Numbered from the stretch's first letter, positions 2-28,640 are shown. The stretch is 32,000 nt of DNA from Argonema antarcticum A004/B2 (GCF_023333585.1 NZ_JAIQZN010000080.1:685-32684), one strand, 5' to 3'. The notes: a model not told the origin generated them from the sequence alone. A program made the numbers and translations.

Positions 2-1933
2 GAGTTATTATCACCACAGAACAAAATTTCTTTTGGATTTGGGGAAGCAGGTCAAGGTAACAAAGCGATTCAACTAGCGTTGTTTAAAATTGGAGTGGGA
101 TTTCTGATAATACGTACACAGCCAAAAAGTAATGATTTAAAAGATTGGCTGAATTTTCTGCACTATTTTCGTTTCTTAAAGGGACAGCAAGGAACTGGAG
201 TAGCAGCAAAACGAAAAACTGGATTAAACCCAGAGACTCAACAACCTGAATTTAGTCAGTTTTTTCCAGAACCAGCGGGGGGTGTTAGCCAATATAAAAA
301 TAGCGATCGCTGTTTATTTAATGAATTGATAATTGCTTTCCTGAAAACGGGAATCAGTGAAAAAAATCCCAAACAGTGGTGGCGAGAAGTATTTGTACCG
401 GGACAAATGCTGCCATTTTTCAGCCTCTTTATTAAGGAATTGCCAACAGAAAGTACCCCTTATTTACTTTACAAGTTACATAACTTTTTCCATACAGGTC
501 AAGGCAACCATCCTTGTTCCGAAGATTTGCAACCAGACAACCCAGCATTATTACCGTATATTACACAGCAATGGTTTGTCTTTGCCCTGGAAGGGGGTGG
601 TTTTCTGGCGGTTGATGCACCGCAGACTGACTTTTTTAAGCAAACTCTTCCCGCTCACTTGCGCGACCAATATTTTCTATTATTTTTGTTAGCGCTTCAT
701 CAGAAATTTGCCTTAATTAGACTATCAGAAATGGTGGCTGCTAATTGGAGAATTAGCGATGATGTGGAAACGGACGTACAGCATAATACGGAAGTATTTA
801 CTAACATTCGCAACCAATTGTTACTGTTTACAGCACGAGGTTATTTTACCCAAGTTATGCAGCGGGAACATCATCATCGCTGCTATCGCAAATGGCAAGA
901 AGTATTTCAATTAGAACGGCTGTATCGGGAACTGAACGACCAAGTGCGGGAGATGCACGAATACTCATTGATGCAGCTACTTCGACGACAGGATGAAGCG
1001 GCTAAAGAAAGCGATCGTCAGCGTCAAGAGGATATACGGCGACAAGATGAAGCGGCTAAAGAACGAGAACGTTTGTACTTGCAAGAACTACGAGCTAAGG
1101 ATGAGGCTGCCCAAAAGCGCGATCGCCAATTGCAAAATACAGTATACATTGTCACTGCGGGGTTAGGCGCTGGTGCGATCGTTGCTTCTAGTGCAGGCTT
1201 AATTACGCAAGGTAGCAGCGATGGTCAAGTAACAATCAAATTGCCGTTTACTTCTAGTGTACTGCATCCTTTTAGTGTTGCTGTCGCTTTGAGCTTAATT
1301 TCTGCATTAGGATTTGGAGGAGCAGTTTGGGGAGCAAGGAAACTGATTGCGTGGTATCGTAACAAAGTAGCCCAAGATAATCTGTTAAATTTTATCAAGC
1401 TCTTATCGGAGCGCTCAGGTTGGTTTTCCATTCAAGACCGAGAGAATTTGGGTAAGTTGATTGCTTCTCAACCAAATGATGCTGTGGAAATATGGGAAGC
1501 ACTGTTTAATTGGTGTCAAGATAATAGCCATAATTATCCTATCCTAGACGAATTAGGGAGATTGCCAAAAAGCCTAGCTAAAAATAATTTTTCTCAAACA
1601 GATAAGAATCATAAAAAAATGTTGCTAGACGCGATCGCTCCTCCGAATCTGGCTCACAAGAAGATAGAATCATTTATTAGGTTATTAACGACTCGGCAGG
1701 AGTTGTTTTCCGATGCCGAGCAGGAAAGCTTACGTCGAGAAGCCCCTCATTGGCCAGAAGACGTAGAACAGCTTGCAAATGCGATCGGCTTTTGGTGTAA
1801 AGTTGAGGGTCGTTCTCAAATTTATGCAGAGCTATTGCAATTGCAAAACAGCCTGCCCAGCAATCACCTGCTTTCAAATCAAGGTAAAACTAAAGATATG
1901 TTACTTAATTTACTAAATATGAAAGGAAAATAA
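2..1933 (+). CDS. Uncharacterised two-TM membrane protein with coiled-coil stalk; first gene of the type III operon and possibly 5'-truncated by the window edge
   Basis: The track ORF 80..1933 starts at a TTG, but the same frame has no stop back to nt 2, so the true start may lie upstream of the window. Three in-phase 54-bp (18-aa) tandem units, RRQDEAAKE-like, span 983-1144. They run into two hydrophobic helices (VYIVTAGLGAGAIVASSAGLI; FSVAVALSLISALGFGGAVWGA) followed by the basic stretch RKLIAWYRNK. Two copies of a ~60-aa module follow (FIKLLSERSGWFS..FNWC and FIRLLTTRQELFS..GFWC). The stop at 1931-1933 is 1 nt from the next ATG. No family was recognised by eye. Confidence 0.6.
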   Translation, partial: ELLSPQNKISFGFGEAGQGNKAIQLALFKIGVGFLIIRTQPKSNDLKDWLNFLHYFRFLKGQQGTGVAAKRKTGLNPETQQPEFSQFFPEPAGGVSQYKNSDRCLFNELIIAFLKTGISEKNPKQWWREVFVPGQMLPFFSLFIKELPTESTPYLLYKLHNFFHTGQGNHPCSEDLQPDNPALLPYITQQWFVFALEGGGFLAVDAPQTDFFKQTLPAHLRDQYFLLFLLALHQKFALIRLSEMVAANWRISDDVETDVQHNTEVFTNIRNQLLLFTARGYFTQVMQREHHHRCYRKWQEVFQLERLYRELNDQVREMHEYSLMQLLRRQDEAAKESDRQRQEDIRRQDEAAKERERLYLQELRAKDEAAQKRDRQLQNTVYIVTAGLGAGAIVASSAGLITQGSSDGQVTIKLPFTSSVLHPFSVAVALSLISALGFGGAVWGARKLIAWYRNKVAQDNLLNFIKLLSERSGWFSIQDRENLGKLIASQPNDAVEIWEALFNWCQDNSHNYPILDELGRLPKSLAKNNFSQTDKNHKKMLLDAIAPPNLAHKKIESFIRLLTTRQELFSDAEQESLRREAPHWPEDVEQLANAIGFWCKVEGRSQIYAELLQLQNSLPSNHLLSNQGKTKDMLLNLLNMKGK

Positions 1934-1934
1934 A

Positions 1935-3398
1935 ATGACTAATTTAATCGTGCAAGTTCTCGGTAATAGCGATGTTGAAGTTGATGGAGAAGATGGTTTA
2001 AAAAAGTTAGAACAACTCTATTCTCTAGAAGAGATCCAGGAACAGGCTCGGTGGAACGATCGAGATTTTATCGAACAACTAAACAGAGTTAGTTTTCCCT
2101 TAGTACAAAAGCTTTATGACAATTTATCTACTGATACGGATATTTTGTTTGCTTTTATCCTGACTGACCAAATTCGATGGACGCAAAATCATAATGGCAC
2201 GGCAGAATTGTGGAGCAGTGTCGTTACCTTAGATGGCATTTGGTGGAAAAATATTTTATTAGCGTGGTGTCGAAACAAAAATATAGGTTGTTATCCTATC
2301 CGGCTAAATGTTGAACCAAATGTACCTAATGGGGCGGCTGACTGGGAAGGAATGGCAGAAGCGATCGATCCTTTATTAGATAAATATATCGTATTTGAAA
2401 ATAACTCGATATATTTTACACCAGAAGAAGGAGACAAAATTCCCATAGAAAAAATTATCGTACAGCATAGCAGCGGTACACCTGCTTTAAGTGGTGCTTT
2501 ATATCTTTGGGGTATCGAACAAAAGCTAGCTGGTAAAAATATCGATTTTGTTTATATTTCCGAACAAGAAGCAGACTGTCCTATACATCCCGGTAAGCAT
2601 TGGCAGTGGCGGCTCAAAGTGCCTCAAATTCGCGAATTATTGGAAATTCAAGATTTTAGTGGCGCTTTAAAGTTATTAGATTCCCTTCATCCTAGATATC
2701 AAGAGTTAGTTGAGTCGCTCTCTTTTCTCGACCGATCGGTTTCTTTGAATTTAGAAGGGAGAAATCTAGAGGGAAAAGAAAGTATTATCGAACGGGTAAG
2801 TATTGCTTTGTGGAGTGAAAAAGCTTTTCGCGATCGCAGTCAGTGGATGCACTGGTATTTGAGAATGGCTGGTTCTTTTGAGTTAGCTTTATATTTGTTA
2901 TTGGAAAAGCAAGGAAATAACAATTATCAATGGGAAAATAAAAAATTGATTTTTAGGGGAGATAAAGACACAGGAGATATTGCTAAATCTGGGATTGCAA
3001 ATGTTGTAGCCAAACTCTTGACTACGGGTGAATTGATTTATTCATTTTACCATAAACCACCCACAACTTTTGACAGTCAGCCAATCAACGATTCAAATTG
3101 GGAGCAGTTTAACAGTTTTTATTTAAATAAATGGTTGCAAACCAAAAAAGAGTGTTATGGATTTAATTCTTTGAGAAATGAACTATTCCATAATTTAAGA
3201 GGTGACTTCATCGATAAACTATTGGATGAAAAAACCAAAAAAATTAATGGTAAAGTTGACCATAAAGAGCATCCATCTCAAGTAGCTGTTGATTGGTTGG
3301 AATATATCATAGGGCTAGCTGATTTAGCCGATGAAGTTAAAAATCGGTCTAATAAATATCGCGATCGCATCTCACAAATATTAACAATTTTGCAATGA
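1935..3398 (+). CDS. CARF-HEPN ancillary RNase (Csx1/Csm6-like)
   Basis: 487-aa ORF wedged between the membrane-protein gene and cas10, with an ATGA overlap at 3395-3398. The N-terminal half is Rossmann-like (LIVQVLGNSD; ILFAFILTDQ; IIVQHSSGTPALSGALYLWG, which resembles a CARF ligand loop). The C-terminal helical half carries the R-x4-H HEPN motif RNELFH (3174-3191). Assignment rests on motif and context only. Confidence 0.65.
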   Translation: MTNLIVQVLGNSDVEVDGEDGLKKLEQLYSLEEIQEQARWNDRDFIEQLNRVSFPLVQKLYDNLSTDTDILFAFILTDQIRWTQNHNGTAELWSSVVTLDGIWWKNILLAWCRNKNIGCYPIRLNVEPNVPNGAADWEGMAEAIDPLLDKYIVFENNSIYFTPEEGDKIPIEKIIVQHSSGTPALSGALYLWGIEQKLAGKNIDFVYISEQEADCPIHPGKHWQWRLKVPQIRELLEIQDFSGALKLLDSLHPRYQELVESLSFLDRSVSLNLEGRNLEGKESIIERVSIALWSEKAFRDRSQWMHWYLRMAGSFELALYLLLEKQGNNNYQWENKKLIFRGDKDTGDIAKSGIANVVAKLLTTGELIYSFYHKPPTTFDSQPINDSNWEQFNSFYLNKWLQTKKECYGFNSLRNELFHNLRGDFIDKLLDEKTKKINGKVDHKEHPSQVAVDWLEYIIGLADLADEVKNRSNKYRDRISQILTILQ

Positions 3399-5605
3399 AT
3401 ATACAAGACTGGTTATCCAAACAACAACAAATTTATCCCCAGCAACCGTTACCCGATGTAAGCCCTAATTTGTCTTGTCATCCAGTTAGCGGGGAATGGC
3501 AAGATTCGGCACATATAAAAAGTAAATTTTGGTGGGGTGGTGGCGCTTCGGAAGAGGCTTGTAACCAAATTGAGGGAGACAATTTTGACCATCTAAATCG
3601 AGTAGCGGTGCTATCATTTGGCCCAGTACAGACCTTTTTAGGTGGTGGACAAAGATTGAGAGATTGGGCGGTAGCTTCTTGGCTGTGTCACTATCTTTCA
3701 GCAGTTCTAATTTATCGCTGGGAAGAAGCAGGTGGTAAAGTTTTACTGCCTTTACATCAAAGTTCAAAATTAGTCAATTGGTTGAAAGGAAGTAATGCAG
3801 TTTCCGATCGATTTTGGCAGGCAGAATTACCAAACGTAATTACAGCATTATACCCCAATCGAGACAATTGGTTAGACCAAAGGAAAGAGGTTATTAAAAA
3901 CGAATGGAAACGTTTTCTAGAAGCTTTAGAAAAAGCTGCGATCGCTCAATATCCGCGCTTGCTTGATGGTCAAGGATGGCGCGTTATCCATTCTGATAAC
4001 CAATATCTTTGGTCAGTTTATACTGAAGAAACTGCCCTTAATATGGAAACTGTTAGCGAAGATATCGATAGTTTACATCAGCGAATTGAATCGCGAAAAA
4101 TTGGTCGAGAATGGTCGGGTACTTGGTGGGGAGGGCGTACCAGTCCCAGCGATGGTTGTCTGTCAATTTGGCATCCAGGTTTAAAATTAATTTATCAAGG
4201 TGGAATGTGGGGATTACCTGACAACCAGATCGACAGTTGGTGGGAAAGGGCTACTCAAGAAAGTAAATTACAAGGATTATTTTCTAGTACAGACCGTCTT
4301 AATAGTATCGAATTAGTTAAACGGTTAGCTTCTGTTCCCGAAATTATCGAACCAACTTTAAAAGATTTGTGGAAAAAAAATCCCCCCGAATGTCCTTGGG
4401 GTCGCTTTCCAGATCGAACTGCTGCTGCTGCTGCTTGGGTAACAACTTCTATCAAACCAGATCGATGGAATCAAGAAGTTGGAGTTTTGCATGAATACTA
4501 TCTTAACAAGAAACCAATCTATTTTTGGGGAATGCCCAAAGCAGACGAACAATCTCCTTCTTTTGCCCATCCGCGTGTATTGGAACGGCGAAATATTGAA
4601 GATGAAACGATGATTGAGGATTGGGAAAACAATGTACCGCAAGGTTGGGAAAGTACCATTGAATGGACGGTGGGATGGCGGGGTGATGGGGATAATATGG
4701 GTAAATGGTTATCAGGAGAACAATATGAAAAGCTAAGGTTGCTTTGGTCGCAATGGCATCCTAATTCTGCAATGATAACCCAACATAATTTAGGGATTAA
4801 TCCGGCGATCGATCCGGTTCAATGCAGGCAGATGGAATTACCCCATATCCTCGATCTATCGGTACTATTTGGATTGTGGAATGAACTGCTTTATCCTTTA
4901 ACAGAAGAAGTTCATCACGGGAAAGTCATTTTTGCTGGAGGTGATGATTTTCTGTTATTAGGGCCGTTAACTGAAGCGATTTCTCTTACCAGCGATTTGC
5001 ATTCGCTTTGGATGGGAGAAGCTTCGCCGTTAACACAACCTTTAGACCCGCCTGTAGATGGTTGGGTAGAGTACAATTCTCAAATTTACCCCATACCTGG
5101 AAAGAAGATGAATTTCAGTTTGGGGTTAGTAATTGCCCAGCGGAGGATTCCTCAGTCTTTGTGGCATCGAGGATTGAATCAGGCATATAAGGAAGCTAAA
5201 AATAAGGGGCGAAATCGAGTCTGTGTGAAAGTTTTGTTTAATAGCGGACAATCTTTAGATTGGATTTGTCCTTGGCCTTTGTGGAATTTGTTAATGCCTG
5301 TGGAACCGATCGCTACTAATCAAACTGAATTAAATCGCTGGGAAAAATTACTTTCTTACTTGGAAAGCAGTCGCTTGCGAGAGGTTTCTATTTTTACAGT
5401 ACGAGATTTGATTGAAACTCTGTGGGCTAGCGTGGGAATTCGTCTGACTTGGCAACAAGTTATGGATGTAGGACGCGCTGAATTTGAGGCAGAAATTAAA
5501 GATTGGCAGTGGTGGATTAATTGGATTAGTTTGAAAGCTTTTCTAGCAAGGCAAGCGCAACAACGGCAAAAGTGGGTGGAATTGATGACGGAGGGGAAAG
5601 CATGA
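3395..5605 (+). CDS. cas10: Cas10 (Cmr2) large subunit, HD domain absent, cyclase GGDD present
   Basis: 736 aa. The Palm-domain start VAVLSFGPVQTFLGGGQRLRDWAVASWLCHYLS lies about 70 aa from the N terminus. The cyclase motif is VIFAGGDDFLLLGP, with GGDD at 4937-4948. The gene is followed by cmr3-5-like genes. Confidence 0.9.
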   Translation: MNIQDWLSKQQQIYPQQPLPDVSPNLSCHPVSGEWQDSAHIKSKFWWGGGASEEACNQIEGDNFDHLNRVAVLSFGPVQTFLGGGQRLRDWAVASWLCHYLSAVLIYRWEEAGGKVLLPLHQSSKLVNWLKGSNAVSDRFWQAELPNVITALYPNRDNWLDQRKEVIKNEWKRFLEALEKAAIAQYPRLLDGQGWRVIHSDNQYLWSVYTEETALNMETVSEDIDSLHQRIESRKIGREWSGTWWGGRTSPSDGCLSIWHPGLKLIYQGGMWGLPDNQIDSWWERATQESKLQGLFSSTDRLNSIELVKRLASVPEIIEPTLKDLWKKNPPECPWGRFPDRTAAAAAWVTTSIKPDRWNQEVGVLHEYYLNKKPIYFWGMPKADEQSPSFAHPRVLERRNIEDETMIEDWENNVPQGWESTIEWTVGWRGDGDNMGKWLSGEQYEKLRLLWSQWHPNSAMITQHNLGINPAIDPVQCRQMELPHILDLSVLFGLWNELLYPLTEEVHHGKVIFAGGDDFLLLGPLTEAISLTSDLHSLWMGEASPLTQPLDPPVDGWVEYNSQIYPIPGKKMNFSLGLVIAQRRIPQSLWHRGLNQAYKEAKNKGRNRVCVKVLFNSGQSLDWICPWPLWNLLMPVEPIATNQTELNRWEKLLSYLESSRLREVSIFTVRDLIETLWASVGIRLTWQQVMDVGRAEFEAEIKDWQWWINWISLKAFLARQAQQRQKWVELMTEGKA

Positions 5606-6591
5606 GTAGATGGTATTCTATTACGCCAGCGGGAACGGTAGCGATCGGGAATCTGACTCCGGTCGGTCAAAATAGCGGACAAGTGGGCTGTCGTTGGCCA
5701 CCGAACGGTCATCATCTGGCAGCTTGTTTGAAATTACCATCAAATTGTCAAATTTGGGGGCCGTTTTGGTATAAGGGCGAAGGGAATATTTACGTTACAT
5801 TACCTCTGCCTGTTTATCGGTTGGAATCTAAAACAGAGGAACTACCCCAAGAAATTTTTCGCTTGCAATGGCGAGACGGACAATGGCAGAAACAATCGGA
5901 ACATCAAGAACAAGAAATTGAAATTATTGGCGGTAGATATTTAATTCGTGGCAATACTTTAAAGACATTTTGGCAGGCAGGAAAGTTGAAAAATCCGCAA
6001 CTGCAAAAATTTCCTTGGCAAACGCTTACTTTAAGTCACAATAGCCGGGAAGATTACCAAGTTAAAGATGAGGGAGGCTTTTTTGCGGAAATGACTACTT
6101 TAATGTCGCCTGGGTGGTCGATTTTGGTCAAGGTGATGGGAGATTGCAAGTTAGACGAGTGGGGTTTTTTGGGCGCAGGAGGTACGCCAGTTGCGATCGC
6201 GCCCGTAGAAATAAAGGAGGATTGGTTAACGGCAGATTGTCCCAACCCTACTGGTGCGGTTTTACTCACCGGGGCGTTGTGGCAACAGGGGTCATCCGGC
6301 ACACTCAGCAGCAAAGTATCTTGTCCCGTTCCACCATTGCCGATTAAAGCTTATGCTGCCGATACAGGCGTTCCCTGGCAATCTTGGAAAAAGGTCAAAC
6401 ACCGTGATGAAAAAGACAACCCCAATGCTGAAAAACGGGTAGAAGTTTTTACACCGGGAGAATGGATGACTCCCGCAGGCGCGGTGTATCTGTGGGAGGG
6501 AACTGCACCTTTGTTAAAATCCGAACCTTTGCCGGATGCTTACCATCGTCATGTTTTAGGTTACGGACATTTATGGTTATTTCAGGAGTGA
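5602..6591 (+). CDS. cmr3: Cmr3-like (Cas5-family) subunit
   Basis: The ATG at 5602 overlaps the cas10 stop (ATGA). The track's 5572 start is a GTG inside cas10. Size (~330 aa) and position fit Cmr3, and there are glycine-rich segments (FLGAGGTPVAIAP). No decisive motif was recognised. Confidence 0.55.
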   Translation: MSRWYSITPAGTVAIGNLTPVGQNSGQVGCRWPPNGHHLAACLKLPSNCQIWGPFWYKGEGNIYVTLPLPVYRLESKTEELPQEIFRLQWRDGQWQKQSEHQEQEIEIIGGRYLIRGNTLKTFWQAGKLKNPQLQKFPWQTLTLSHNSREDYQVKDEGGFFAEMTTLMSPGWSILVKVMGDCKLDEWGFLGAGGTPVAIAPVEIKEDWLTADCPNPTGAVLLTGALWQQGSSGTLSSKVSCPVPPLPIKAYAADTGVPWQSWKKVKHRDEKDNPNAEKRVEVFTPGEWMTPAGAVYLWEGTAPLLKSEPLPDAYHRHVLGYGHLWLFQE

Positions 6592-6596
6592 ATTAA

Positions 6597-7370
6597 ATGG
6601 CTATTGAATGGTTAATTTGTCGAGAACCTGTACATATTGGGGGTGCTGATAGTAGCAGTCGCGGTAATAATAATCCCATATTTCGATTGCCCGATCGCAG
6701 TCCGGCGATTCCTGGTAGTTCGTTGCGAGGGGCATTGCGAGAACACGCTAAAAGTGATGCTAACTATCAACCATTAGTAAAAAATTGGTTTGGTGGTGAG
6801 AATAATGATATTTCTCCGGGCAATATTTCTTTAGGTTGGGGTTGGCCTGTGTGGTGGCCTGTTCATGTGTTGGGATATGGTAATTGGTGGGTGAGTTGTC
6901 CCAGTTGGTTAAATCGATTTTGCCAATTATCTCAACGATCACCTTTGAACCTTGCTACAGATAAAGTTCATATTACGGAACCACAACTTCGTAATAAAAC
7001 GGTTTATTTGCGGTGGTTAAAGTTGACAAATGTACAGTATTATGCAAACGAATTGCCAGCGCCAGCGGAAGTACCAAAAGATAGGCGAATAGTGGTACCG
7101 GATACTAGCATTAATTTAATTGTGGATATGGGTTTGGTACGACAACCGCGAGTTAGTTTGAAAGATGAAGCGGATGAAAAAGGAAATTTAGTCAACAATT
7201 TATTTGCCGTTGAAGGTTTTCCACCAGGTTCGGTTTTTCTGCTCACTTGGACGACGCGGGAAAAAGTGGAAGAGTTAAACAAGTGGAATGATTTTTTAAT
7301 GGGAGAACATTATCTTGGGGGCTTGTGGAGTGTGGGTTATGGACGGGTGTTTATTTCTCATATTGTATAG
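6597..7370 (+). CDS. cmr4: Cmr4-like Cas7 backbone RAMP
   Basis: 257 aa. The RAMP signature is RGNNNPIFRLPDRSPAIPGSSLRGALREH. A Trp-rich segment (GWGWPVWWPVHVLGYGNWWVSCPSWLNRF) sits in the usual Cmr4 position, and the C terminus is glycine-rich (LGGLWSVGYGRV). Confidence 0.8.
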   Translation: MAIEWLICREPVHIGGADSSSRGNNNPIFRLPDRSPAIPGSSLRGALREHAKSDANYQPLVKNWFGGENNDISPGNISLGWGWPVWWPVHVLGYGNWWVSCPSWLNRFCQLSQRSPLNLATDKVHITEPQLRNKTVYLRWLKLTNVQYYANELPAPAEVPKDRRIVVPDTSINLIVDMGLVRQPRVSLKDEADEKGNLVNNLFAVEGFPPGSVFLLTWTTREKVEELNKWNDFLMGEHYLGGLWSVGYGRVFISHIV

Positions 7371-7383
7371 TTAGGAGTGGATT

Positions 7384-7821
7384 ATGAATCCCGTGAGTTC
7401 TTATGAGTTAGATAGAGAAGTTTTCCAACTGCTGAATCCTGGAGAAGGACAATTAGATAATTGGCAGGGGGCGGCAAGTGGCATTGCTGATTATGTAGCT
7501 AGTTGGGGTGTGGAACGCTTTTGGGCGATGTCGCGATCGCGAGTGTTATTAGGTGGCGAAATGCCCAATGCTGCAACGGGTTCCGATGAGGAAAAGCGTT
7601 ATTTTGCTTGGGGTGTAGCGCGGGTAGTTTTGTGCAAAATTGTCGGTACTGATTTGCGGATTGAAAAAACAATGACAACTGAAGCGTTTCAGAATCGCTT
7701 TCGAGAATTGGATTTTAATCAGCAGGTTTTGTTGACTGATTTGTTGATGGAAATTTCGGATACGATTCAGTTTTGGACAATGCGATTGAAGGATGCTAAG
7801 AAGTGTAATACGCAGGTTTGA
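7384..7821 (+). CDS. cmr5: Cmr5-like small subunit (Cas11)
   Basis: 145-aa ORF directly after cmr4 and the last gene of the operon. The call rests on size and position; no motif was seen. Confidence 0.5.
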   Translation: MNPVSSYELDREVFQLLNPGEGQLDNWQGAASGIADYVASWGVERFWAMSRSRVLLGGEMPNAATGSDEEKRYFAWGVARVVLCKIVGTDLRIEKTMTTEAFQNRFRELDFNQQVLLTDLLMEISDTIQFWTMRLKDAKKCNTQV

Positions 7822-7847
7822 TTGAGTGGTTTGGGTAATGAATTAAA

Positions 7848-7891
7848 AGAAACGAAGATGAAAACATTCTTCGCTTCTTTATTTTTAATTT
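7848..7891. terminator. Bidirectional intrinsic terminator between the cmr operon and the trailer end of array 1
   Basis: Stem AGAAACGAAGA (7848-7858) pairs with TCTTCGCTTCT (7868-7878) with one mismatch and a 9-nt loop. A T-run (TTATTTTTAATTT) follows on the + strand, and AAAA precedes it, which reads as a T-run on the minus strand. Confidence 0.7.
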
Positions 7892-7946
7892 ATAATGAAT
7901 ATTTTTACCTTCACCTATAGTCAGATATATCCTTTAACTGGACAGA

Positions 7947-8598
7947 GTTTTCACACCTTTTCCTTCTAATGAAGGTCGCTACTTTTTTATAATACCTTAT
8001 CCAACAATGGTTTTGTAAAGCTTCAACACCTTTACCTTCTAATGAAGGTCGCTACCTGATTCTATTACGGTGATTGCCAGCGCTACCACTTGTTTCAACA
8101 CCTTTACCTTCTAATGAAGGTCGCTACGTCTGGGATTTGTTACCGCCCAGCAAAGCGGCAATCAAATAGCGATGGTTTCAACACCTTTACCTTCTAATGA
8201 AGGTCGCTACCGCCCTAAAAGCATTAGGGCTAGGGGAGCGCCTGATAGTGGTTTCAACACCTTTACCTTCTAATGAAGGTCGCTACGTGACCGGCGCGAC
8301 CGGTTTTGTCGGCTCGGCGGTGGCGCGGGTGGTTTCAACACCTTTACCTTCTAATGAAGGTCGCTACTCGATCGCTAGCCCCTTGCATTTAGAGCTAGAG
8401 CAGTTGCCTCAGCTTTGTTTCAACACCTTTACCTTCTAATGAAGGTCGCTACCACCACTACAGCAGCAGCAGCAAAAACGGGACAAGACAGTTTCAACAC
8501 CTTTACCTTCTAATGAAGGTCGCTACGCCATCATGAAGGTGGGGATTTCTGCAAGTTCGCGCGTTTCAACACCTTTACCTTCTAATGAAGGTCGCTAC
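7947..8598 (-). CRISPR. CRISPR array 1: 9 repeats of 36 bp, 8 spacers of 36-49 bp
   Basis: Repeats start at 7947, 8020, 8092, 8175, 8251, 8332, 8417, 8491 and 8563. The + strand consensus is GTTTCAACACCTTTACCTTCTAATGAAGGTCGCTAC. The transcribed (minus) form is GTAGCGACCTTCATTAGAAGGTAAAGGTGTTGAAAC, which ends in the type III-like tag GTTGAAAC. The two lowest-coordinate repeats are degenerate (3 mismatches and 1 mismatch), marking the trailer. The conserved leader lies on the high-coordinate side. Confidence 0.97.
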
Positions 8599-8805
8599 CT
8601 ACCCCTATTCAACCCCTTATCCTGCCTGATTTCCAGCGGCAGTTTGCGAGGGATACCAATTTTCTTACCACAAACCTCCTTACTTGCACATCTTTAAACG
8701 TCTAAAACCCTTGCCCAGTAAGGCAGCGAGGCTCACAACGAAGTTGCGTTGTTTCAGCGATTTTTCATCACCCTCGCAATTTTAGGGAATTGGGGATAGC
8801 TGGGA
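8599..8805 (-). promoter_or_regulatory. Leader of array 1
   Basis: It flanks the non-degenerate end of the array. Its blocks are collinear with the array 2 leader: AAACCCTTGCCCAG (8705-8718), GTTTCAGCGAT (8751-8761), and the inverted pair TTGCGAGGG (8644-8652) / CCCTCGCAA (8771-8779). Confidence 0.7.
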
Positions 8806-8849: not shown

Positions 8850-10364
8850 TCAACATTGCCATACAACCTGGAAACCTTTACTTGTCAGCGTCGCTTCCAC
8901 AGCTTGATCAAATACAGTAATCAAACAATAATTCTCATATTGTCGCACCGCATAACCAGATGGTCGAGTCTCAGAATTTCCACACCATTGGGGGCGATTT
9001 GTGGCTGTGGTACTGCAAACTTTATGCACGATATCTCGCCATTTATCTCCTTTTCCCTGCCAAATACTAATCAGAGAACCAGAAACTATTGCTGGCTTTG
9101 ACATCGCACGCCAACCATAATTTTCACCTAATTTTGCGATTAGTTCCCGCAAACGCTTAATTAACTCATTCAAAGGTTCTTCCAAATTAACTGGCGTAAC
9201 AGTAAATTCACTACCCCGAAAACCATAAAAACGTTCTAAAACGTGGGGTGGTCTGCGCCAACCTGGGCCAAGTCCACCAAGGCGACTAGCTAAAGCAAGC
9301 AATCCACCAATTAAAGGTTTAAATTCTTCATTGCAATCAACACTAATTATCCAAGTTGCGTGTGCTTGACGAGCCGGAATATTAGTATAATCATTGGAAG
9401 TTTGACCGAGCATTCTGGGAATAGATTGCAAATAGCTAGTTAAAGTTAATTTAGCCGGACAACCCAAACCTCCAAATATTTTATCAGTCAGTTTTAAGGC
9501 AGTTTCCTGCGAAAACAAAGATAATGCCAATCTGGTAAAGTAACCGCGTAAATTAGCCCGCAATACTTGAGGCGTCCAGCGGTATTGTCCGGTTTGATTT
9601 TCCCCTGGTTTGTGACTTTGGACGCAAGGTTTCATTCCGGTGAGTTGAATCTCCCAATTTCCTGAAGGAATAAAGGGCGCTAATCGACCAAAACCCGATG
9701 CTTTTCCCCGTCCGATTCCTTGGAATTGCAGCATTTCTTTTAAGCGTGTTTCCAGCCAAGTTTTTTGTTCTTTGCTAGAAGTATCTTTCAGTAAAACTTG
9801 CAAGCAGAATTTATCGAAATTCGGACTGGGAGGTTTAGGAGATACTTGCCATTGAATGCCTAAATTCTTACTTTTTTCGTCAAATAACTGCCATTTTTGT
9901 TGAGCGTTTAATGGATAAGGTTTGAGGTTTTTTAGTAGAATGGTTTCAAAGCGAATTTTGCGGGGTAGCCAGTGAGTGCGATCGCTTGCCAGCAAACTTT
10001 GCCAAAAAGCTTGTTCTTCACTCGGTAAATCATTCCATTTTCCCTGAATCCAACTTAGCAAAGCGCCCCTAATGCTAGAACCGGGAATGCAGGGAACACC
10101 GCCAATTTGGGCGGGTAAAATACCTCCTTCTGGAAAACTACCCCCACCAACTTGAATCGGACTAATAATTTGCAATTTGTCCAAACGTACCGTGTAAGCA
10201 TCAGCATTTTTGGGCGAATAACTTCCTTTTGTATCCCAAGCATCAATAATTATGGCAGAATCTTCTTTACCTTCAATAATATCCTCAGTTTTCGGTGTCC
10301 AGCCTCTTTCTTTTGTCTCTTCAACTGTGTACCATTGGGGCATTTCTTCAGGTAATAGCGCCAT
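8850..10364 (-). CDS. Two-RAMP-domain protein: Cmr6-like N-terminal half, Cmr1-like C-terminal half
   Basis: 504 aa. The first RAMP has GGVPCIPGSSIRGALLSW and the glycine loop QGIGRGKASGFGRL. The second RAMP has LRANLRGYFTRLAL, IFGGLGCPAKLTL and LGGLGPGWRRP. No separate cmr1 or cmr6 occurs elsewhere in the window. Confidence 0.6.
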   Translation of the reverse strand: MALLPEEMPQWYTVEETKERGWTPKTEDIIEGKEDSAIIIDAWDTKGSYSPKNADAYTVRLDKLQIISPIQVGGGSFPEGGILPAQIGGVPCIPGSSIRGALLSWIQGKWNDLPSEEQAFWQSLLASDRTHWLPRKIRFETILLKNLKPYPLNAQQKWQLFDEKSKNLGIQWQVSPKPPSPNFDKFCLQVLLKDTSSKEQKTWLETRLKEMLQFQGIGRGKASGFGRLAPFIPSGNWEIQLTGMKPCVQSHKPGENQTGQYRWTPQVLRANLRGYFTRLALSLFSQETALKLTDKIFGGLGCPAKLTLTSYLQSIPRMLGQTSNDYTNIPARQAHATWIISVDCNEEFKPLIGGLLALASRLGGLGPGWRRPPHVLERFYGFRGSEFTVTPVNLEEPLNELIKRLRELIAKLGENYGWRAMSKPAIVSGSLISIWQGKGDKWRDIVHKVCSTTATNRPQWCGNSETRPSGYAVRQYENYCLITVFDQAVEATLTSKGFQVVWQC

Positions 10365-10560: not shown

Positions 10561-10594
10561 GTTTCAACACCTTTTCCCTATCTAAAGGGTCTTC
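10561..10594 (-). repeat. Solitary CRISPR-repeat-like element (third repeat variant)
   Basis: The + strand reads GTTTCAACACCTTTTCCCTATCTAAAGGGTCTTC. The first 16 nt are identical to the array 2 repeat, and it has its own small stem (CCCT..AGGG) at the position of the array hairpins. No second repeat lies nearby. Confidence 0.75.
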
Positions 10595-10671
10595 TTTACT
10601 TTAATAGGAGAAAGCCTGGAAAATAAGGTCATAATGGCATTGACATTTGTTCGCTTCAGTGATATATACAC

Positions 10672-11460: not shown

Positions 11461-11739
11461 CTAAACGATGAAAGCCGCATCATCTACTGCAAAGTCTGGC
11501 TTTATTCCTAAGACCGCTACTTTGCAACGACAGGGGTCGGATAGGGGATAAAATCTGAGTTGGTCTTCTTTGGAATTGAGTATTTTGAACAACCGTTTTT
11601 GAATGTTCTCGTACTGCTTTTCATCCAGTACCGCCTCGAATACCGACTTCTGCACTCGCAATCCGTAAGTTTCTAATAATTTAGAAACTTTATAGCGGCG
11701 ACTATCATCTACGATGTCATAGCAAATGAGGTAAAACAT
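11461..11739 (-). CDS. cas2: Cas2
   Basis: The sequence MFYLICYDIVDDSRRYKVSKLLETYGLRVQKSVFE.. is typical of the Cas2 ferredoxin fold. The ATG at 11739-11737 overlaps the cas1 stop (TAATG). The longer track ORF to 11880 runs inside cas1. Confidence 0.9.
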   Translation of the reverse strand: MFYLICYDIVDDSRRYKVSKLLETYGLRVQKSVFEAVLDEKQYENIQKRLFKILNSKEDQLRFYPLSDPCRCKVAVLGIKPDFAVDDAAFIV

Positions 11740-12803
11740 TACACTTTTACCAGTATTCGCTGTTCTGTTGGCTGATTGCTGACAGGAGAGATAGCAGTAT
11801 CGGTATCCCATTTCAGCAGCATGGGGCGGTAGAATTCTACATCGCCTAACAAGTAAGCAATGTATTCTTGTACTTGCCATGCTAAACAGCGACGGTAGCT
11901 GAGTTTTCCTGCATATAAATGAGTCACTTCAGTTTGCAGCTTTTCTTCCCAATGCTTGATAAACTTTTTCAACGTAGCAGGATATAGAGATATTGCGTCC
12001 TGTTGGGAAGGTCGGGTAAAATCGTCAGGTGTCAGAATTTGCGAAATTGCCAAATTTGCCACTAATTCGTCTACCAAGAAAGGACGAAATTCGACGGCGA
12101 AATCTTCAATCAAAGATAGTTCATCTTGGCAATAAAAATGCAGGTTGCCGAAGTTGGGATTGAGTCCGGCTGATTGTACAAATCCGTAAATGGTATGATT
12201 TAGCAGGGCATTACCCAGGCGTAACACGCTGTTAATGGAGTGGGAGTGAGGGCGACAAGTACACTGGAAGTTGAAAGCTTTTGCGAGTAACTCGGTGATG
12301 GCTTGATAGTACAAAGAAGCGGCTGTAGTTGAGTATTCCCGCAGTGCGTGGATAGAATCTGCCATCGGCAAATCATCGATTAAAAGGTCTAGCATTTCCA
12401 TCGCTATTTCTGCTTTGGGAGTGGAATGATTTGCACTCAAGCGCAACAGAACGATGCCACAGTTATGCAGGTAAGCGCGGACGATGCTTTCAGCTATGGT
12501 TTTGGGAAAGTTGGGGTTTTGGGCGCGTTTGATTTGCTGGGGAAAGTATTTGGCAGGATGTAGCGATTCTAGTTGTAAGCGTCCTAAATAGTTTCCTTGG
12601 TTGTCGAGGAATAGGACGGGAATTGCCAGAGATTGAGCTAAAGATGCGGCGTTCGGTTGTAAGTGGCAATTACCGAATAGAGTAATTTTGCTTACTTGGG
12701 AAGAATGCACTTGCAGGCACAGTTTGTTTTGGTGGAATACTTGGAAGTAATGATGTTTTACTTTTAAGCAAGTGCCTGGTTCGGTCATGTAGATTGCTGT
12801 CAT
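11739..12803 (-). CDS. cas1: Cas1 without RT, a paralogue of the Cas1 domain of the RT-Cas1 fusion
   Basis: 354 aa. Along its length it parallels RT-Cas1 residues 332-665, for example MTAIYMTEPGTCLKV vs MTTLYVTDQGAYLSI, FGNLH in both, and FIKHWEEKLQTEVTH vs FLKHWEEKLQSELTH. Acidic and His active-site positions are retained (REYS, GNLH, IEDFAVEFR). Confidence 0.9.
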   Translation of the reverse strand: MTAIYMTEPGTCLKVKHHYFQVFHQNKLCLQVHSSQVSKITLFGNCHLQPNAASLAQSLAIPVLFLDNQGNYLGRLQLESLHPAKYFPQQIKRAQNPNFPKTIAESIVRAYLHNCGIVLLRLSANHSTPKAEIAMEMLDLLIDDLPMADSIHALREYSTTAASLYYQAITELLAKAFNFQCTCRPHSHSINSVLRLGNALLNHTIYGFVQSAGLNPNFGNLHFYCQDELSLIEDFAVEFRPFLVDELVANLAISQILTPDDFTRPSQQDAISLYPATLKKFIKHWEEKLQTEVTHLYAGKLSYRRCLAWQVQEYIAYLLGDVEFYRPMLLKWDTDTAISPVSNQPTEQRILVKV

Positions 12804-13244: not shown

Positions 13245-13250
13245 AATTGG

Positions 13251-14102
13251 GTTTCAACACCTTTTCTCTTCAGTAAGAGTCAATCGTGAGTACAAATGGT
13301 ACATGGACGATAGCCCTTGGGTAGAGGTTTCAACACCTTTTCTCTTCAGTAAGAGTCAATCCAGCATTTGCTGGTAACGACCCGTATGAAAAACTGATGG
13401 GTTTCAACACCTTTTCTCTTCAGTAAGAGTCAATCTCTTTTTAACAGACCAAAAAGTTGGTGGAGCTTTATAAAGTTTCAACACCTTTTCTCTTCAGTAA
13501 GAGTCAATCATGGAGACACTGTAATTTGCGCAGGTTCCGCGGACGAACAGTTTCAACACCTTTTCTCTTCAGTAAGAGTCAATCTTTGCAATGGTAATTT
13601 CTATGATTGCCAGTGGAACAGTTTCAACACCTTTTCTCTTCAGTAAGAGTCAATCAAGAGCTACCAGGGTGGGCGGTAACCGTCTGCCCTGAAAGTTTCA
13701 ACACCTTTTCTCTTCAGTAAGAGTCAATCCGGGAGCAAATCCAGGAGCGGCGGCAACAGCAAAACAATCGCGTTTCAACACCTTTTCTCTTCAGTAAGAG
13801 TCAATCCAGCAATAGGGTTGGTCGGCACTGGTGTCGCTTGGGGAATGTTTCAACACCTTTTCTCTTCAGTAAGAGTCAATCAATCTTGATAAAATTGAGA
13901 AAAAAGCAGAGGAAGCAAGTTTCAACACCTTTTCTCTTCAGTAAGAGTCAATCTTGTCTGGTTTTGATAGTCTTAGCTGGGCCCGCCGGCCTAGTTTCAA
14001 CACCTTTTCTCTTCAGTAAGAGTCAATCAGTGGCAAACCGACTCGACGCACGAGTCAGAAGCAGCTTGTTTCAACACCTTTTCTCTTCAGTAAGAGTCAA
14101 TC
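13251..14102 (-). CRISPR. CRISPR array 2: 12 repeats of 35 bp, 11 spacers of 36-42 bp
   Basis: Repeats start at 13251, 13327, 13401, 13475, 13550, 13621, 13695, 13772, 13847, 13919, 13994 and 14068, and all are identical. The + strand reads GTTTCAACACCTTTTCTCTTCAGTAAGAGTCAATC. The transcribed form is GATTGACTCTTACTGAAGAGAAAAGGTGTTGAAAC. Confidence 0.97.
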
Positions 14103-14340: not shown

Positions 14341-16338
14341 TCACAGAGTCCAAATCATCGGACGGTAAGTATCAACTTCCCCCATCAAACAAGCAACATA
14401 TTCCCGCACCTGCAACTCCAAACAGCGGCGAAAACTGACTTTGTATCCAGTATGCGGGTGCGTCAATTCCGACTGCAATTTTTCTTCCCAATGCTTCAAA
14501 AACTTTTTTAGCGCATGAGGTTGCAGAAACACGCCACCACGTTCATCTGGCAACGTAAAATCCTCCGATGTGAAAATTTTAGAATTAACCAAATAAGACA
14601 CCAAAGAATCTACCAACTGCGCCCGAAACTCTTCCATCAAATCCGAAACCAATGCCGGATGATTATCGCGAGGAACGTGCAAATTACCGAAATGAGTATG
14701 CAGTCCAATCAATTCGATAAAAGAGCAAACATTTTGACTCAGCAGCGTATATCCCAAACTCATCAAACTGTTAATTGGGTCGGTAGGAGGGCGCTTTGTT
14801 CGCTTTTCAAATGCAAAAGTTCCAGTAAACAGAGAACCCAATGCTTGAAAATACAAAGTGGCTGCTTTTCCTTCATATCCCCGTAACGCATCCATCGATT
14901 CAGCATCAGGTAATTTCTCCATCAATTCAGCAATTGATTCCAGGGATTGCAAGGCAATTTTGCTGGGACGACGACGATTTAATTTGAGCAATAAAGCGCG
15001 GGAATTATGTAATTTAGCCCAAACAATGGCTTCTGCTTGCCGTCGCGTGAATTCAGGATTTAGAGAACATTCAACCTGCCGTGCCAAGTATTCCACCTTC
15101 GCGTGTCCGTCCGTTTGCAAACGCCCGAAATAGCGGCCTTTCTGGGAAAGATACATGACCGGAATTCGCCGCCGCAAAGCACAAGATACCGCTCCGTGCG
15201 ATAAATTGCAACAACCGAATAAGACAATATGGCTGACCCGATTGGCTGGCACTTTAATCCGCAACTCCCGCTGATAGAAAACTTCAAATTGCTGGTTATG
15301 AATGCTCAAGTAAGCACCTTGGTCAGTTACGTACAAAGTAGTCATGGGTTCCTTCCAAAAATGTTCGGTATTGGCAATGGGAAAGTTAATAGGTTTGAGT
15401 AAGCTACAAGCTTTGGGAGGTTGGGAAAAAACGGGAGTTTTTCGAGCTTTTTGTTGATAAGGCATCCCGGAATCCCGGAGTGCGAGTCCTCCTAGTTGAG
15501 GAGGTGGCGGCGGAATTAATTCTCCTTTAGAAAAGCGATAACCTAGAAAAGTAAACTCTTCATCGGGAGTGAAAATATGGGTTTTTCCCGGTTGAAGCTT
15601 CAGATAGATATCGCCCAACCATTGGTTAATTTGTGACAAAGCGCGATTAGCTTGTATCCAATCGCCAGATGCAATGACAAAATCATCGCCATAGCGCACC
15701 AAATTAAATCCCTTACTCAAACAAAATCGATCGAATTCGGTGAGGTACAAGTTAGCTAAAGCACCGGAAAGAATGGCACCTTGCAATACTCCCTGACCGA
15801 AATTTCGGCGAACAGCACCAATTACGATGTCGGATTTTAGTTGCTGTTCGATTAATTGCAGTAAAATAGGTTCTAGCTGCAATTGCTCTAAGTCGGTTAG
15901 CAGTAACGCCCAGCAGAGGTTGTCGAAAAATTTCTCAATATCTGCCTTGACAATCCAAGTGGGTTGGAACTGATAATAGGAATACAGATGTTTGACTGCC
16001 ATCTGAATTCCCCGACCGGGACGGTAAGCGTAGCTGCAATCGAGAAATCGTTCTTCAAGGGGGAAGTAAAGTTCGTTCAGCAGCAGGCGAGAGACAATTC
16101 TATCCCGCACTGTCTGAATGCCAACCAACCGCTTACCACCACTCGATTTGGATAGATAAAATCCTTTGGCGGGACTAACCGTGTAGGTTTCGTTTTGCAG
16201 TCGATGGTGTAAAATTTGTAACTGCTGACGAGCAATTGGGGCAAATAAATCGGTGGTAATACCATCAATACCAGCACTTTTACTTCCCTTGCGAACTTGT
16301 TCCCAAGCAATCTGGAGAAGTTCTGGGGTTAATTCCAT
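14341..16338 (-). CDS. Reverse transcriptase-Cas1 fusion
   Basis: 665 aa. The N-terminal half has group II intron-like RT motifs: YAYRPGRG, KADIEKFFDNL, GVLQGAILSGALANLYL, the YxDD box RYGDDFVI (Tyr codon at 15693-15691), LKLQPGKTHI and FTFLGYRF. A proline linker PPPPPQ follows. The Cas1 domain starts at residue 332 (ATG at 15345). There is no N-terminal Cas6-like domain. Confidence 0.93.
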   Translation of the reverse strand: MELTPELLQIAWEQVRKGSKSAGIDGITTDLFAPIARQQLQILHHRLQNETYTVSPAKGFYLSKSSGGKRLVGIQTVRDRIVSRLLLNELYFPLEERFLDCSYAYRPGRGIQMAVKHLYSYYQFQPTWIVKADIEKFFDNLCWALLLTDLEQLQLEPILLQLIEQQLKSDIVIGAVRRNFGQGVLQGAILSGALANLYLTEFDRFCLSKGFNLVRYGDDFVIASGDWIQANRALSQINQWLGDIYLKLQPGKTHIFTPDEEFTFLGYRFSKGELIPPPPPQLGGLALRDSGMPYQQKARKTPVFSQPPKACSLLKPINFPIANTEHFWKEPMTTLYVTDQGAYLSIHNQQFEVFYQRELRIKVPANRVSHIVLFGCCNLSHGAVSCALRRRIPVMYLSQKGRYFGRLQTDGHAKVEYLARQVECSLNPEFTRRQAEAIVWAKLHNSRALLLKLNRRRPSKIALQSLESIAELMEKLPDAESMDALRGYEGKAATLYFQALGSLFTGTFAFEKRTKRPPTDPINSLMSLGYTLLSQNVCSFIELIGLHTHFGNLHVPRDNHPALVSDLMEEFRAQLVDSLVSYLVNSKIFTSEDFTLPDERGGVFLQPHALKKFLKHWEEKLQSELTHPHTGYKVSFRRCLELQVREYVACLMGEVDTYRPMIWTL

Positions 16339-16444: not shown

Positions 16445-16463
16445 ATAGAGTTTTGAAGAATTG

Positions 16464-28058: not shown

Positions 28059-28640
28059 ATGACAGTAACGCTAGACAAAACAAAAGACCAACGCCTAGTT
28101 CATTTTGGAATGAGTTGGCAACAGTTCAAGTTACTTCAGGAAAGCTTTGCCGACTCACGAGGAATCCGACTCGCTTATTACAAAGGAGAAATTGAAATTG
28201 TGACACTTTCCCCTGACCACGAATCAATCAGCCGCATGATTACAGGGTTGCTAATTGTGTATTTTTTGAACAAAAACATTGAATTCAACCCATTAGGCAG
28301 CTTTACCCAAGAAAAGGAAGAGGAAGTTTCAGCGCAAGCAGACGAATCATTTGCTATTGGTAGGTCAACCGCAACTAAACCTGACTTGGTTGTAGAAGTA
28401 ATCTTTACCAGTGGTAGCGATCGCAAATTGAAACGCTATAAAGTTTTAGGTGTTCCTGAAGTTTGGTTTTGGGAAGATGGTTTATTCAGGCTGTATCATT
28501 TGCGGGAATCAGGATACGAGCGGATAGAGCGTTCTGAAGTTTTGCCAGATTTGGATATCAACCTGTTAACTCGTTGTGTGATGATGGCTTCTAAACTTGA
28601 AGCTCTTAAAGTGTTTCAACAGGCAATTGCTCAAGCTTAA
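28059..28640 (+). CDS. Uma2 (DUF820) family restriction-endonuclease-like protein
   Basis: 193 aa with the family-typical layout: ..YYKGEIEIVTLSPDHE.., PDLVVEVIFTSGS, YKVLGVPEVWFWE. Confidence 0.8.
   Translation: MTVTLDKTKDQRLVHFGMSWQQFKLLQESFADSRGIRLAYYKGEIEIVTLSPDHESISRMITGLLIVYFLNKNIEFNPLGSFTQEKEEEVSAQADESFAIGRSTATKPDLVVEVIFTSGSDRKLKRYKVLGVPEVWFWEDGLFRLYHLRESGYERIERSEVLPDLDINLLTRCVMMASKLEALKVFQQAIAQA

Follow-up and report, generated by a model that had tools for sequence, protein, structure and literature searches.

The CRISPR-associated CorA protein of the Bacteroides fragilis type III-B system binds, in vitro, the S-adenosyl methionine–AMP conjugate (SAM-AMP) made by Cas10 (PMC10600005), and that of a type III-D2 system, which makes SAM-AMP, is implicated genetically (PMC13294483). 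For a CorA clade with a CARF partner and without SAM-AMP-degrading enzymes, sensing of cyclic oligoadenylate (cOA), in the form of cyclic hexa-adenylate (cA6), has already been proposed (PMC11229360). How does the gene that runs from position 2 to 1,933 of a 32,000-nucleotide (nt) stretch of Argonema antarcticum A004/B2 DNA (GCF_023333585.1 NZ_JAIQZN010000080.1:685-32684; the whole stretch is called the window here) compare with these? By its sequence, the encoded protein is a CRISPR-associated CorA membrane effector in an unusual, long form, not an effector of a new kind, and we think it rather probable that it serves a type III-B (Cmr) system with its output half rebuilt, acting by the route set out below.

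From nt 2 the frame stays open up to a TAA at 1931-1933, with its 5′ end outside the window, and the 643 residues it encodes are 100% identical to residues 103-745 of a 745-amino-acid (aa) Argonema antarcticum ‘hypothetical protein’ (P0001), which places the real start codon, whose recovery an earlier reading made from the sequence alone (the sequence-only reading) had called for, ~306 nt before the window. The PADLOC CRISPR ‘CorA-like’ profiles match full-length P0001 with E-values of 4.4e-61 (PDLC01175), 3.9e-20 (PDLC01043) and 2.8e-14 (PDLC01174), covering the N-terminal ~400 residues or two thirds of the protein, and the window fragment alone reaches 6e-37. The sequence-only reading had called the protein unrecognised and outside the described ancillary families, a view that these matches overturn, and had suggested comparison with Csx23, Cam1 and other membrane effectors; all PADLOC matches at E < 0.01 are CorA models, and identity with Cam1, Csx23 or a CARF-transmembrane effector was rejected. 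A database search gave 256 homologues, most of them 480-530 aa long and covering the first ~50-70% of the query, several of the shorter ones matching Pfam CorA (PF01544) or carrying the source name CorA; the window protein has no PF01544 match at E <= 0.1. Searching the PDB by sequence and by profile, whether with the protein, with the alignment of the family or with the tail, returned chance-level matches only, and no solved CRISPR-CorA structure.

The genes that follow on the same strand are those of a Cmr cluster:

1931..1937, plus strand: corA TAA, 1-nt gap and csx1 ATG (read from the sequence)
1935..3398, plus strand: csx1, CARF-HEPN ribonuclease gene (PADLOC CARF_HEPN E 8e-16, Csx1 E 2e-13; HEPN motif RNELFH at residues 414-419)
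3395..5605, plus strand: cas10/cmr2 (Cas10b), no HD motif, GGDD at residues 515-518, Asn147 (family matches, motifs)
5602-6591, plus strand: cmr3 (family matches)
6597-7370, plus strand: cmr4 (family matches)
7384-7821, plus strand: cmr5 (family matches)

As the sequence-only reading had it, corA ends 1 nt before the ATG of the CARF-HEPN gene at 1935, which has AAGGA 7-11 nt ahead of it, and the next two junctions, csx1/cas10 (3395-3398) and cas10/cmr3 (5602-5605), each consist of an ATGA overlap. The tight corA/csx1 junction is consistent with translational coupling, and a scan with consensus promoter and terminator patterns found nothing above chance and no terminator at this junction. The order corA-csx1-cas10-cmr3-cmr4-cmr5 is complete in six loci (the window, L001/L010, L002/L013, L011, L012 and L014), while a seventh corA locus, on metagenome contig L015, ends inside the gene in the csx1 position; beyond Argonema the same order was seen in Floridaenema, in Phormidium CCY1219, in two species of Laspinema and on a metagenome contig. 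The assignment of the gene to a type III effector cluster, co-oriented with csx1, an HD-less cas10 and cmr3-cmr5, is thus upheld, and because the profile matches and the downstream cmr order agree, the gene is the CorA-family ancillary effector of a type III-B system.

Might it instead be a housekeeping Mg2+/Co2+ transporter of the CorA kind that lies beside cas genes by chance? Its topology is CorA-like, and CorA, ZntB and CmaX take the top, non-significant, Foldseek ranks. However, the GMN motif and the Pfam CorA match are both absent, the best profile matches are CRISPR-specific CorA models and the cmr gene order is conserved in seven loci from several genera, so that this explanation is already effectively refuted and highly improbable.

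Stalk, hairpin and tail modules

The layout was derived from hydropathy and from an AlphaFold model (AF2) on a 95-sequence alignment, with a mean predicted local distance difference test score (pLDDT) of 86.8; TM stands for transmembrane helix, HMM for hidden Markov model and i-E for independent E-value:

2..1933, plus strand: corA-family gene, long form, 3′ part, residues 103-745 of 745 (open reading frame (ORF), translation, 100% match to P0001)
2..910, plus strand: partial CRISPR-CorA cytoplasmic domain, residues 103-405, presumed nucleotide sensor (PADLOC PDLC01175, PDLC01043, PDLC01174; AF2 pLDDT >90 over most)
911..1141, plus strand: stalk, E/R/K/Q-rich cytoplasmic portion of a single ~100-residue helix (AF2 helix 406-505, pLDDT 87-97 to residue ~470)
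983..1144, plus strand: three in-frame 18-aa (54-nt) stalk repeats, RRQDEAAKESDRQRQEDI / RRQDEAAKERERLYLQEL / RAKDEAAQKRDRQLQNTV (repeat search, translation)
1142..1204, plus strand: TM1, glycine/alanine/serine-rich (VYIVTAGLGAGAIVASSAGLI), no GMN-type motif (hydropathy, motif survey)
1205..1270, plus strand: 22-aa loop, probably outward-facing, ending in a conserved H-P (hydropathy, alignment; positive-inside rule)
1271..1336, plus strand: TM2 (FSVAVALSLISALGFGGAVWGA) (hydropathy; AF2 helix 525-572)
1337..1366, plus strand: basic juxtamembrane tail RKLIAWYRNK (read from the sequence)
1370..1636, plus strand: C-terminal module 1, ~90 aa, five helices, conserved F..LL ... P ... W-C core (module HMM i-E 1.8e-17)
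1646..1930, plus strand: C-terminal module 2, paralogue of module 1 (blastp against module 1; module HMM i-E 1.5e-19)

The cytoplasmic N-domain, alpha/beta plus helical, extends to about residue 405; residues 406-505 are modelled as a single continuous helix, the stalk running into TM1, and residues 525-572 as a second, TM2 running on into module 1, after which two five-helix modules make up the tail. Basic residues flank the TM helices on both their N- and C-terminal sides, which under the positive-inside rule would put the two termini, and with them the tail modules, in the cytoplasm (N-in/C-in) and the loop outside. Nearly all of this had been read from the sequence alone, namely a soluble N-terminal region, helical stalk, TM1, loop, TM2 and RKLIAWYRNK, in a CorA-like topology without a GMN-type motif, and hydropathy, the model and the motif survey bear it out, the loop measuring 22 aa; the three exact-phase 18-aa repeats likewise hold, in frame and at 54-nt spacing. 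The duplicated C-terminal module is real too, though not of ~60 aa as first proposed: each copy is ~90 aa, and the ranges then given, 1378-1565 and 1660-1845, lie inside the real ones, off codon boundaries.

With CorA/MIT channels such as Thermotoga maritima CorA (PF01544) the protein shares the N-in/C-in topology and the succession of cytoplasmic domain, very long stalk helix into TM1, short outer loop, TM2 and basic tail; unlike them it has no GMN motif or Pfam match, its fold similarity to them is not significant, its cytoplasmic domain belongs to a different sequence family and its C-terminus is ~190 aa longer. CorA from the type III-B system of B. fragilis (PMC10600005) is closer, having a cytoplasmic domain homologous by profile, a long stalk helix with a two-TM hairpin and the context of an HD-less cmr cluster, and arrest of the cell via the membrane after Cas10 signalling would be expected of both. 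Set against it, the Argonema protein lacks the G-x-N motif that TM1 carries in other homologues of the CorA family and adds the 18-aa stalk repeats and a ~190-aa tail of two modules, and its partner gene is CARF-HEPN rather than NrN, DEDD or lyase.

Argonema is not alone in having the long form. Fourteen such proteins were found (P0001-P0013 and Kamptonema P0186; 713-860 aa), the named sources, Argonema, Floridaenema, Phormidium, Laspinema and Kamptonema, all being filamentous cyanobacteria. Common to all fourteen in the alignment are two additions, a charged stalk insertion and a tail of ~190-230 aa past TM2, and both are missing from the closest short forms, e.g., Microcoleus P0014 and P0017 (52% identical). 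An intermediate, P0021, has one extra stalk repeat and a long-form-type hairpin and no tail. In Kamptonema sp. PCC 6506 the long-form corA is apparently split in at least two ORFs (P0122, P0185, P0187 and P0188; fragments of 244 and 425 aa), which suggests a frameshifted or decaying copy; that of K. formosum (P0186, 813 aa) is intact.

The DNA copies of the Argonema stalk repeat start at 983, 1037 and 1091, exactly 54 nt apart, the later two with 86% and 67% identity to the first. Measured from a conserved anchor to TM1, the stalks of long forms have 65, 83, 101, 119, 155 or 173 residues, 65+18n in 13 of the 14, the exception having 99; those of short forms have 18, with one of 36. The size of the 18-aa unit follows from the mechanism of tandem duplication. 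Eighteen residues are five turns of alpha-helix, and the 47-residue offset between the short-form and long-form series is ~13 turns, so by helix geometry the angular register between cytoplasmic domain and TM1 would be kept while the stalk varies in length by up to ~160 Å. The suggestion from the sequence alone that copy number alters stalk length without rotating the helix is strengthened by this series, and the conserved register hints at a stalk that works as a rigid element of transmission.

At its TM1 end (...ASSAGLI) the Argonema protein has neither G-M-N nor G-I-N in a regular-expression survey. Among 53 anchor-matched homologues, 21 have G/S/A-x-N there (mostly G/S-I-N), the counterpart of the CorA GMN, and 23, comprising cyanobacterial short forms and most long forms, have an ‘H-P’ type of hairpin, with a Gly/Ala/Ser-rich TM1 and a longer loop that ends in H-P.

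What are the tail modules? Modules 1 and 2 are 29% identical over 89 aa (two-sequence blastp, E 2e-10), and both are all-helical without conserved catalytic residues. A profile search with the tail found 66 module relatives in 1.84 billion representative proteins, most being stand-alone single-module proteins of ~110-130 aa, a few being fusions with DUF2887-type proteins, and three (P0123, P0125 and P0131) being proteins of ~600 aa from heterocystous filamentous cyanobacteria, two of them named Scytonema / Kalymmatonema. A genome scan with the tail pattern yielded four loci only, each a long-form corA, and a word-indexed search with the tail alone missed even the parent protein, which reflects a limit of the index and not absence. 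In stand-alone modules (P0126-P0184) a three-to-four-helix core ending in W-C is followed by a variable linker, often with R-x-P-G or G-P-G, then by a conserved ...Y/K..L.NAI helix and a disordered tail rich in Pro/Ser/Gln; as a speculation, the linker is a candidate protease site.

No catalytic signature was seen in the modules, which would most likely serve as a regulatory or docking pair. A passive role can also be imagined, with the modules as an oligomerisation or spacer scaffold and the stalk repeats as neutral tandem duplications; the repeats are indeed tandem duplications at the level of DNA, the modules have no catalytic signature or known fold, and charged stalk insertions occur in module-less relatives too. 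We consider this quite unlikely, as the modules remain recognisably conserved between genera, at identities as low as ~35%, and exist also as separate genes in a conserved triad (below), and as helical register is preserved in the stalk lengths, of which 13 of 14 fit 65+18n.

The messenger

Is the messenger of this system SAM-AMP, as in the experimental precedents? The Argonema Cas10 has an intact GGDD and no HD motif. Its Asn147, invariant in 5 orthologues, aligns with the Asn of L-P-N in Pyrococcus furiosus Cmr2 with a score of 56, against 26.9 +/- 4.9 for shuffled sequences. That Asn we take to be N300, by a presumed construct offset (+194) that is supported because it lands exactly on Asn. 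In SAM-AMP synthases a functionally important Asp70 occupies the position of P. furiosus N300, and a second position is B. fragilis E151 / P. furiosus R436 (PMC10600005). At the first of these, therefore, the Argonema Cas10 has Asn where the B. fragilis one has Asp.

The neighbours of corA point the same way. A CARF-HEPN gene directly follows corA in every locus seen, the short Microcoleus form included, for which the beginning of the CARF domain and the R-x4-H of HEPN were recognised in the sequence by eye. A gene for NrN, DEDD or a SAM lyase was found neither among the ORFs of the window, whose upstream lies outside the sequence, nor in the related loci L001, L002, L014 and L015. Because of the adjacent CARF-HEPN gene, the lack of a linked degrading enzyme and the Cas10 Asn147, the messenger is most likely cOA rather than SAM-AMP. 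The nearest parallel is the Actinomyces CorA clade that is linked or fused to the CARF effector Csm6-2 (PMC11229360), where CorA is likewise paired with a CARF-HEPN-type ribonuclease and SAM-AMP-degrading enzymes are likewise absent. Argonema belongs to another phylum, the cyanobacteria, and what its CorA has gained at the C-terminus is a pair of non-catalytic helical modules, not a CARF nuclease; the cyanobacterial clade would, if cOA is indeed its messenger, be a second, independent case of a cOA-sensing CorA.

There are counts on the other side. Both of the CorA effectors on which experiments exist, in-vitro binding for one and genetics for the other, use SAM-AMP or SAM-AMP2 (PMC10600005, PMC13294483), and type III-D CorA loci are also without known SAM-AMP-degrading enzymes (PMC12669027), yet one III-D2 system makes SAM-AMP (PMC13294483). 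The Cas10 comparison covers one of the two specificity positions, that of B. fragilis D70 / P. furiosus N300. That the +194 offset is presumed also lessens the case for cOA. With a cytoplasmic domain homologous to the CRISPR-CorA profiles, the protein could be a conventional SAM-AMP-gated CorA like that of B. fragilis, its Cas10 making SAM-AMP, perhaps plus cOA for Csx1, and the degrading enzyme being encoded elsewhere or the tail modules taking its place. We regard that as possible though on balance unlikely, given Asn147 rather than Asp at the D70 position, the CARF-HEPN gene beside corA in every locus seen, the search of seven loci that found no NrN, DEDD or SAM-lyase gene, and modules that are all-helical with no conserved catalytic residues.

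A cassette shared with protease-linked genes

The sequence-only reading had noted that the C-terminal part is unlike CorA, and missed a cassette that is common to a family linked to TPR-CHAT (caspase-like) proteases. Residues 442-647 of P0001, which run from the final repeat of the stalk through TM1, loop and TM2 to module 1, match residues 420-624 of P0123 with 44.7% identity over 208 aa (blastp, E 1.6e-47), and the same cassette matches P0131 (E 5e-30) and P0125 (E 9e-18). The N-terminal ~400 residues of these three proteins are unrelated to the CorA domain; that they are a diverged CorA domain was rejected, with an hhalign probability of 0.2%. Because the cassettes are homologous and the N-domains unrelated, the long-form CorA is seen as a chimera of a CRISPR-CorA sensor and the output cassette of a protease-linked system.

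‘Family B’ here denotes P0123, P0125 and P0131 together with the two-TM genes in L004, L006, L008 and L016. Some of its members are without a fused module, and have a module gene immediately upstream instead. A TPR-CHAT protease gene adjoins a stand-alone module gene in five of six independent loci (L004, L006/L007, L008, L009 and L016); in the sixth, L017, 900 nt of upstream sequence are visible. Four of the five have the order TPR-CHAT, ~115-aa module, Family B two-TM protein, in three of those four the module gene beginning 11 nt past the end of the CHAT gene, and in L009 the CHAT gene is on the opposite strand, downstream of the two-TM gene. The triad loci are:

L004, 6369-13628
L006, 3090-8341
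L008, 1332-7812
L009, 7661-12532
L016, 1-5247

The triad two-TM protein has ~480-630 aa with an N-domain of its own, and only the CHAT/TPR parts of the triads match known families: neither the module nor Family B corresponds to a family in Pfam, NCBIfam or PADLOC or to a solved structure. The idea that TPR-CHAT proteins themselves carry the module as a shared adaptor was rejected, the module HMM finding it absent from them. In L004 there are, in addition, a further two-TM paralogue and, upstream, an NB-ARC/TPR gene.

Family B and long-form CorA thus have in common the end of the stalk, a glycine-rich hairpin with H-P loop and a tail module; they differ in that Family B has an unrelated N-terminal domain, carries one fused module or a separate module gene rather than two fused copies, and is linked to a protease rather than to cas genes. 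We found no description of a TPR-CHAT / module / two-TM triad in cyanobacteria, which is apparently undescribed. It resembles the caspase-dependent CATRA ternary systems reportedly set out by Burroughs & Aravind in 2020 (cited in PMC8195603), and so may be related to something already named, such as CATRA; the module and Family B proteins match no CATRA or CATASP in Pfam, NCBIfam or PADLOC, collections in which the presence of such models is unconfirmed.

Do the tail modules, then, bring the CRISPR effector under the control of a protease? They might be handles or substrates for a TPR-CHAT protease encoded elsewhere, whose cleavage or capture of a module would unleash or tune the pore, so combining CRISPR signalling with a protease conflict system. 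Apart from the company that the module keeps outside CorA, there is a Laspinema palackyanum locus (L002/L013) in which a TPR-CHAT gene lies 1.9 kb upstream of a long-form corA, the only gene in the vicinity to bear a module; one triad CHAT protein resembles the type III-E Csx29 model at E 7e-15, below the curated cut-off; and protease-unleashed pore formers (EACC1, Pepco) are an established theme (PMC12642450). Type III-E Craspase, in which the TPR-CHAT protein Csx29 cleaves Csx30, is together with EACC1/Pepco a precedent for a CRISPR- or defence-linked CHAT protease that frees a toxic activity via a small partner; in contrast to these the Argonema window has no protease gene, and its module is all-helical and unlike EACC1 or Pepco. 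A TPR-CHAT gene is absent both from the window and from the sequenced parts of L001, L011, L012, L014 and L015, the CHAT proteins are without the module, no cleavage site was identified and the Laspinema adjacency is a single case, all of which makes control by a protease unlikely. In L002 the TPR-CHAT gene (5731-8244, minus strand) is divergent from corA, which starts at 10001, and no stand-alone module or Family B gene lies alongside it; in L. olomoucense (L012), a sister species, the 8 kb upstream of corA contain no CHAT gene.

Mode of action, the wider locus and significance

Family membership, locus, architecture and cassette homology being established, how would the Cmr-associated CorA with its rebuilt output half work? 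Binding of target RNA by Cmr would switch on the Cas10 cyclase, whose messenger, most likely cOA, would also activate the adjacent Csx1. The messenger would bind the cytoplasmic domains of an oligomer (the model for the B. fragilis homologue is pentameric), rigid stalk helices would pass the change on to the glycine-rich hairpin, and the hairpin would open or disrupt the membrane, arresting the infected cell while Csx1 degraded RNA in parallel. The stalk repeats would add multiples of five turns, giving a longer stalk with the same angular register of sensor and pore, and the extra length probably makes room for two tail modules on the same side of the membrane, where these would most likely be a regulatory or docking, possibly autoinhibitory, pair beside the lengthened stalk.

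Some observations besides those on the messenger speak against such a route. In the monomer model pLDDT is ~42-47 over TM1 and the loop and 59-76 over TM2. Foldseek ranks CorA, CmaX and ZntB chains at the top, but at E 0.5-3 and with TM-scores <= 0.23, a weak structural likeness. Module-less CorA relatives sometimes have charged stalk insertions of 30-50 residues, and the stalk-module link is thus not strict. For the module neither a fold match nor a family match was detected, among solved structures or in the family libraries, so that its proposed role is purely inferred. Lastly, L002/L013 is the only long-form corA locus with a TPR-CHAT gene nearby.

Whether corA heads the cluster has to be judged from related loci, as the window begins inside the gene. 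It is the first cluster gene in at least two (L002/L013 and L015) of the five loci that are without the following upstream gene:

L001 451-3387 and L014 7035-9959, same strand as corA: gene for a ~975-aa protein

In L001 (Floridaenema) and L014 (a related metagenome contig), the closest two loci for which upstream sequence is available, it is found 41 nt upstream of corA. Its two copies are 92% identical; the protein has helical repeats of ~120 aa in its interior, a single predicted TM segment and, at the C-terminus, four W..AQ..W.EAI.LLE..P repeats; that it is a CHAT protease or of a recognised family was rejected, there being no family match. None of the other five long-form loci has it (the window's upstream lies outside the sequence), and so it is not a core part.

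Beyond cmr5 the window holds further CRISPR features:

7947..8598 (also delimited as 7947-8611), plus strand: CRISPR array 1, after cmr5, 9 repeats of 36 nt (array search)
8850..10364, minus strand: cmr6-like large RAMP gene (family matches)
11461-12803, minus strand: stand-alone cas2/cas1 pair
13250-14102: CRISPR array 2, 12 copies, between cas1 and RT-cas1
14341-16338, minus strand: RT-Cas1 (reverse-transcriptase-Cas1 fusion) gene

There are two adaptation modules in the one locus, the cas2/cas1 pair and RT-Cas1, each beside one array. The 35-36-nt repeats of the two arrays have their first 14 nt in common (GTTTCAACACCTTT) and differ after that, and a degenerate, solitary repeat-like copy lies at 10561-10609. 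Adjoining RT-cas1 and divergent from it is a gene (16461-19934, plus strand) for a 1157-aa protein with an N-terminal helix-turn-helix (HTH) and a STAND/AAA nucleoside triphosphatase, which may be a separate defence gene or regulator. Apparently without relation to the CRISPR locus is a 2276-aa protein (20956-27786, plus strand) with S8 subtilase, P-domain, Calx-beta and beta-propeller repeats; within its gene a 345-nt unit is repeated 2.7 times at 22587-23500 with 88% identity. Near the 3′ end of the window are a Uma2-family endonuclease gene (28059-28640, plus strand) and an IS630-family transposase in two overlapping frames (HTH and DDE_3; 28703-29649, plus strand).

How CRISPR-CorA proteins sense their ligand and act on the membrane, and whether SAM-AMP use is universal, are unresolved questions (PMC11229360, PMC12669027). 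For the messenger, the long-form clade is a clean test case, with a CARF nuclease joined to it, no linked SAM-AMP-degrading enzyme and a cOA-type Cas10 residue at one position, and for the mechanical coupling of sensor to pore its natural five-turn series of stalks is a ready-made set of probes. The effector is a new architecture within a kind already known, of interest for its exchangeable cassette, its quantised stalk, a signal that is likely not SAM-AMP and a link to the triad. A bolder view, which we hold to be doubtful, is that the long-form CorA is a natural chimera that wires together two immune logics, its tandem modules letting a CHAT protease or a small module partner license or veto membrane killing by CRISPR. 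If true, even in a weaker version, there would be a death cassette of ‘stalk + 2TM + module’ that is portable between unrelated sensor domains, and also an undescribed TPR-CHAT / module / two-TM defence triad in cyanobacteria. As it stands, the shared cassette means that the membrane output of a CRISPR effector is exchangeable with that of a protease-linked system.

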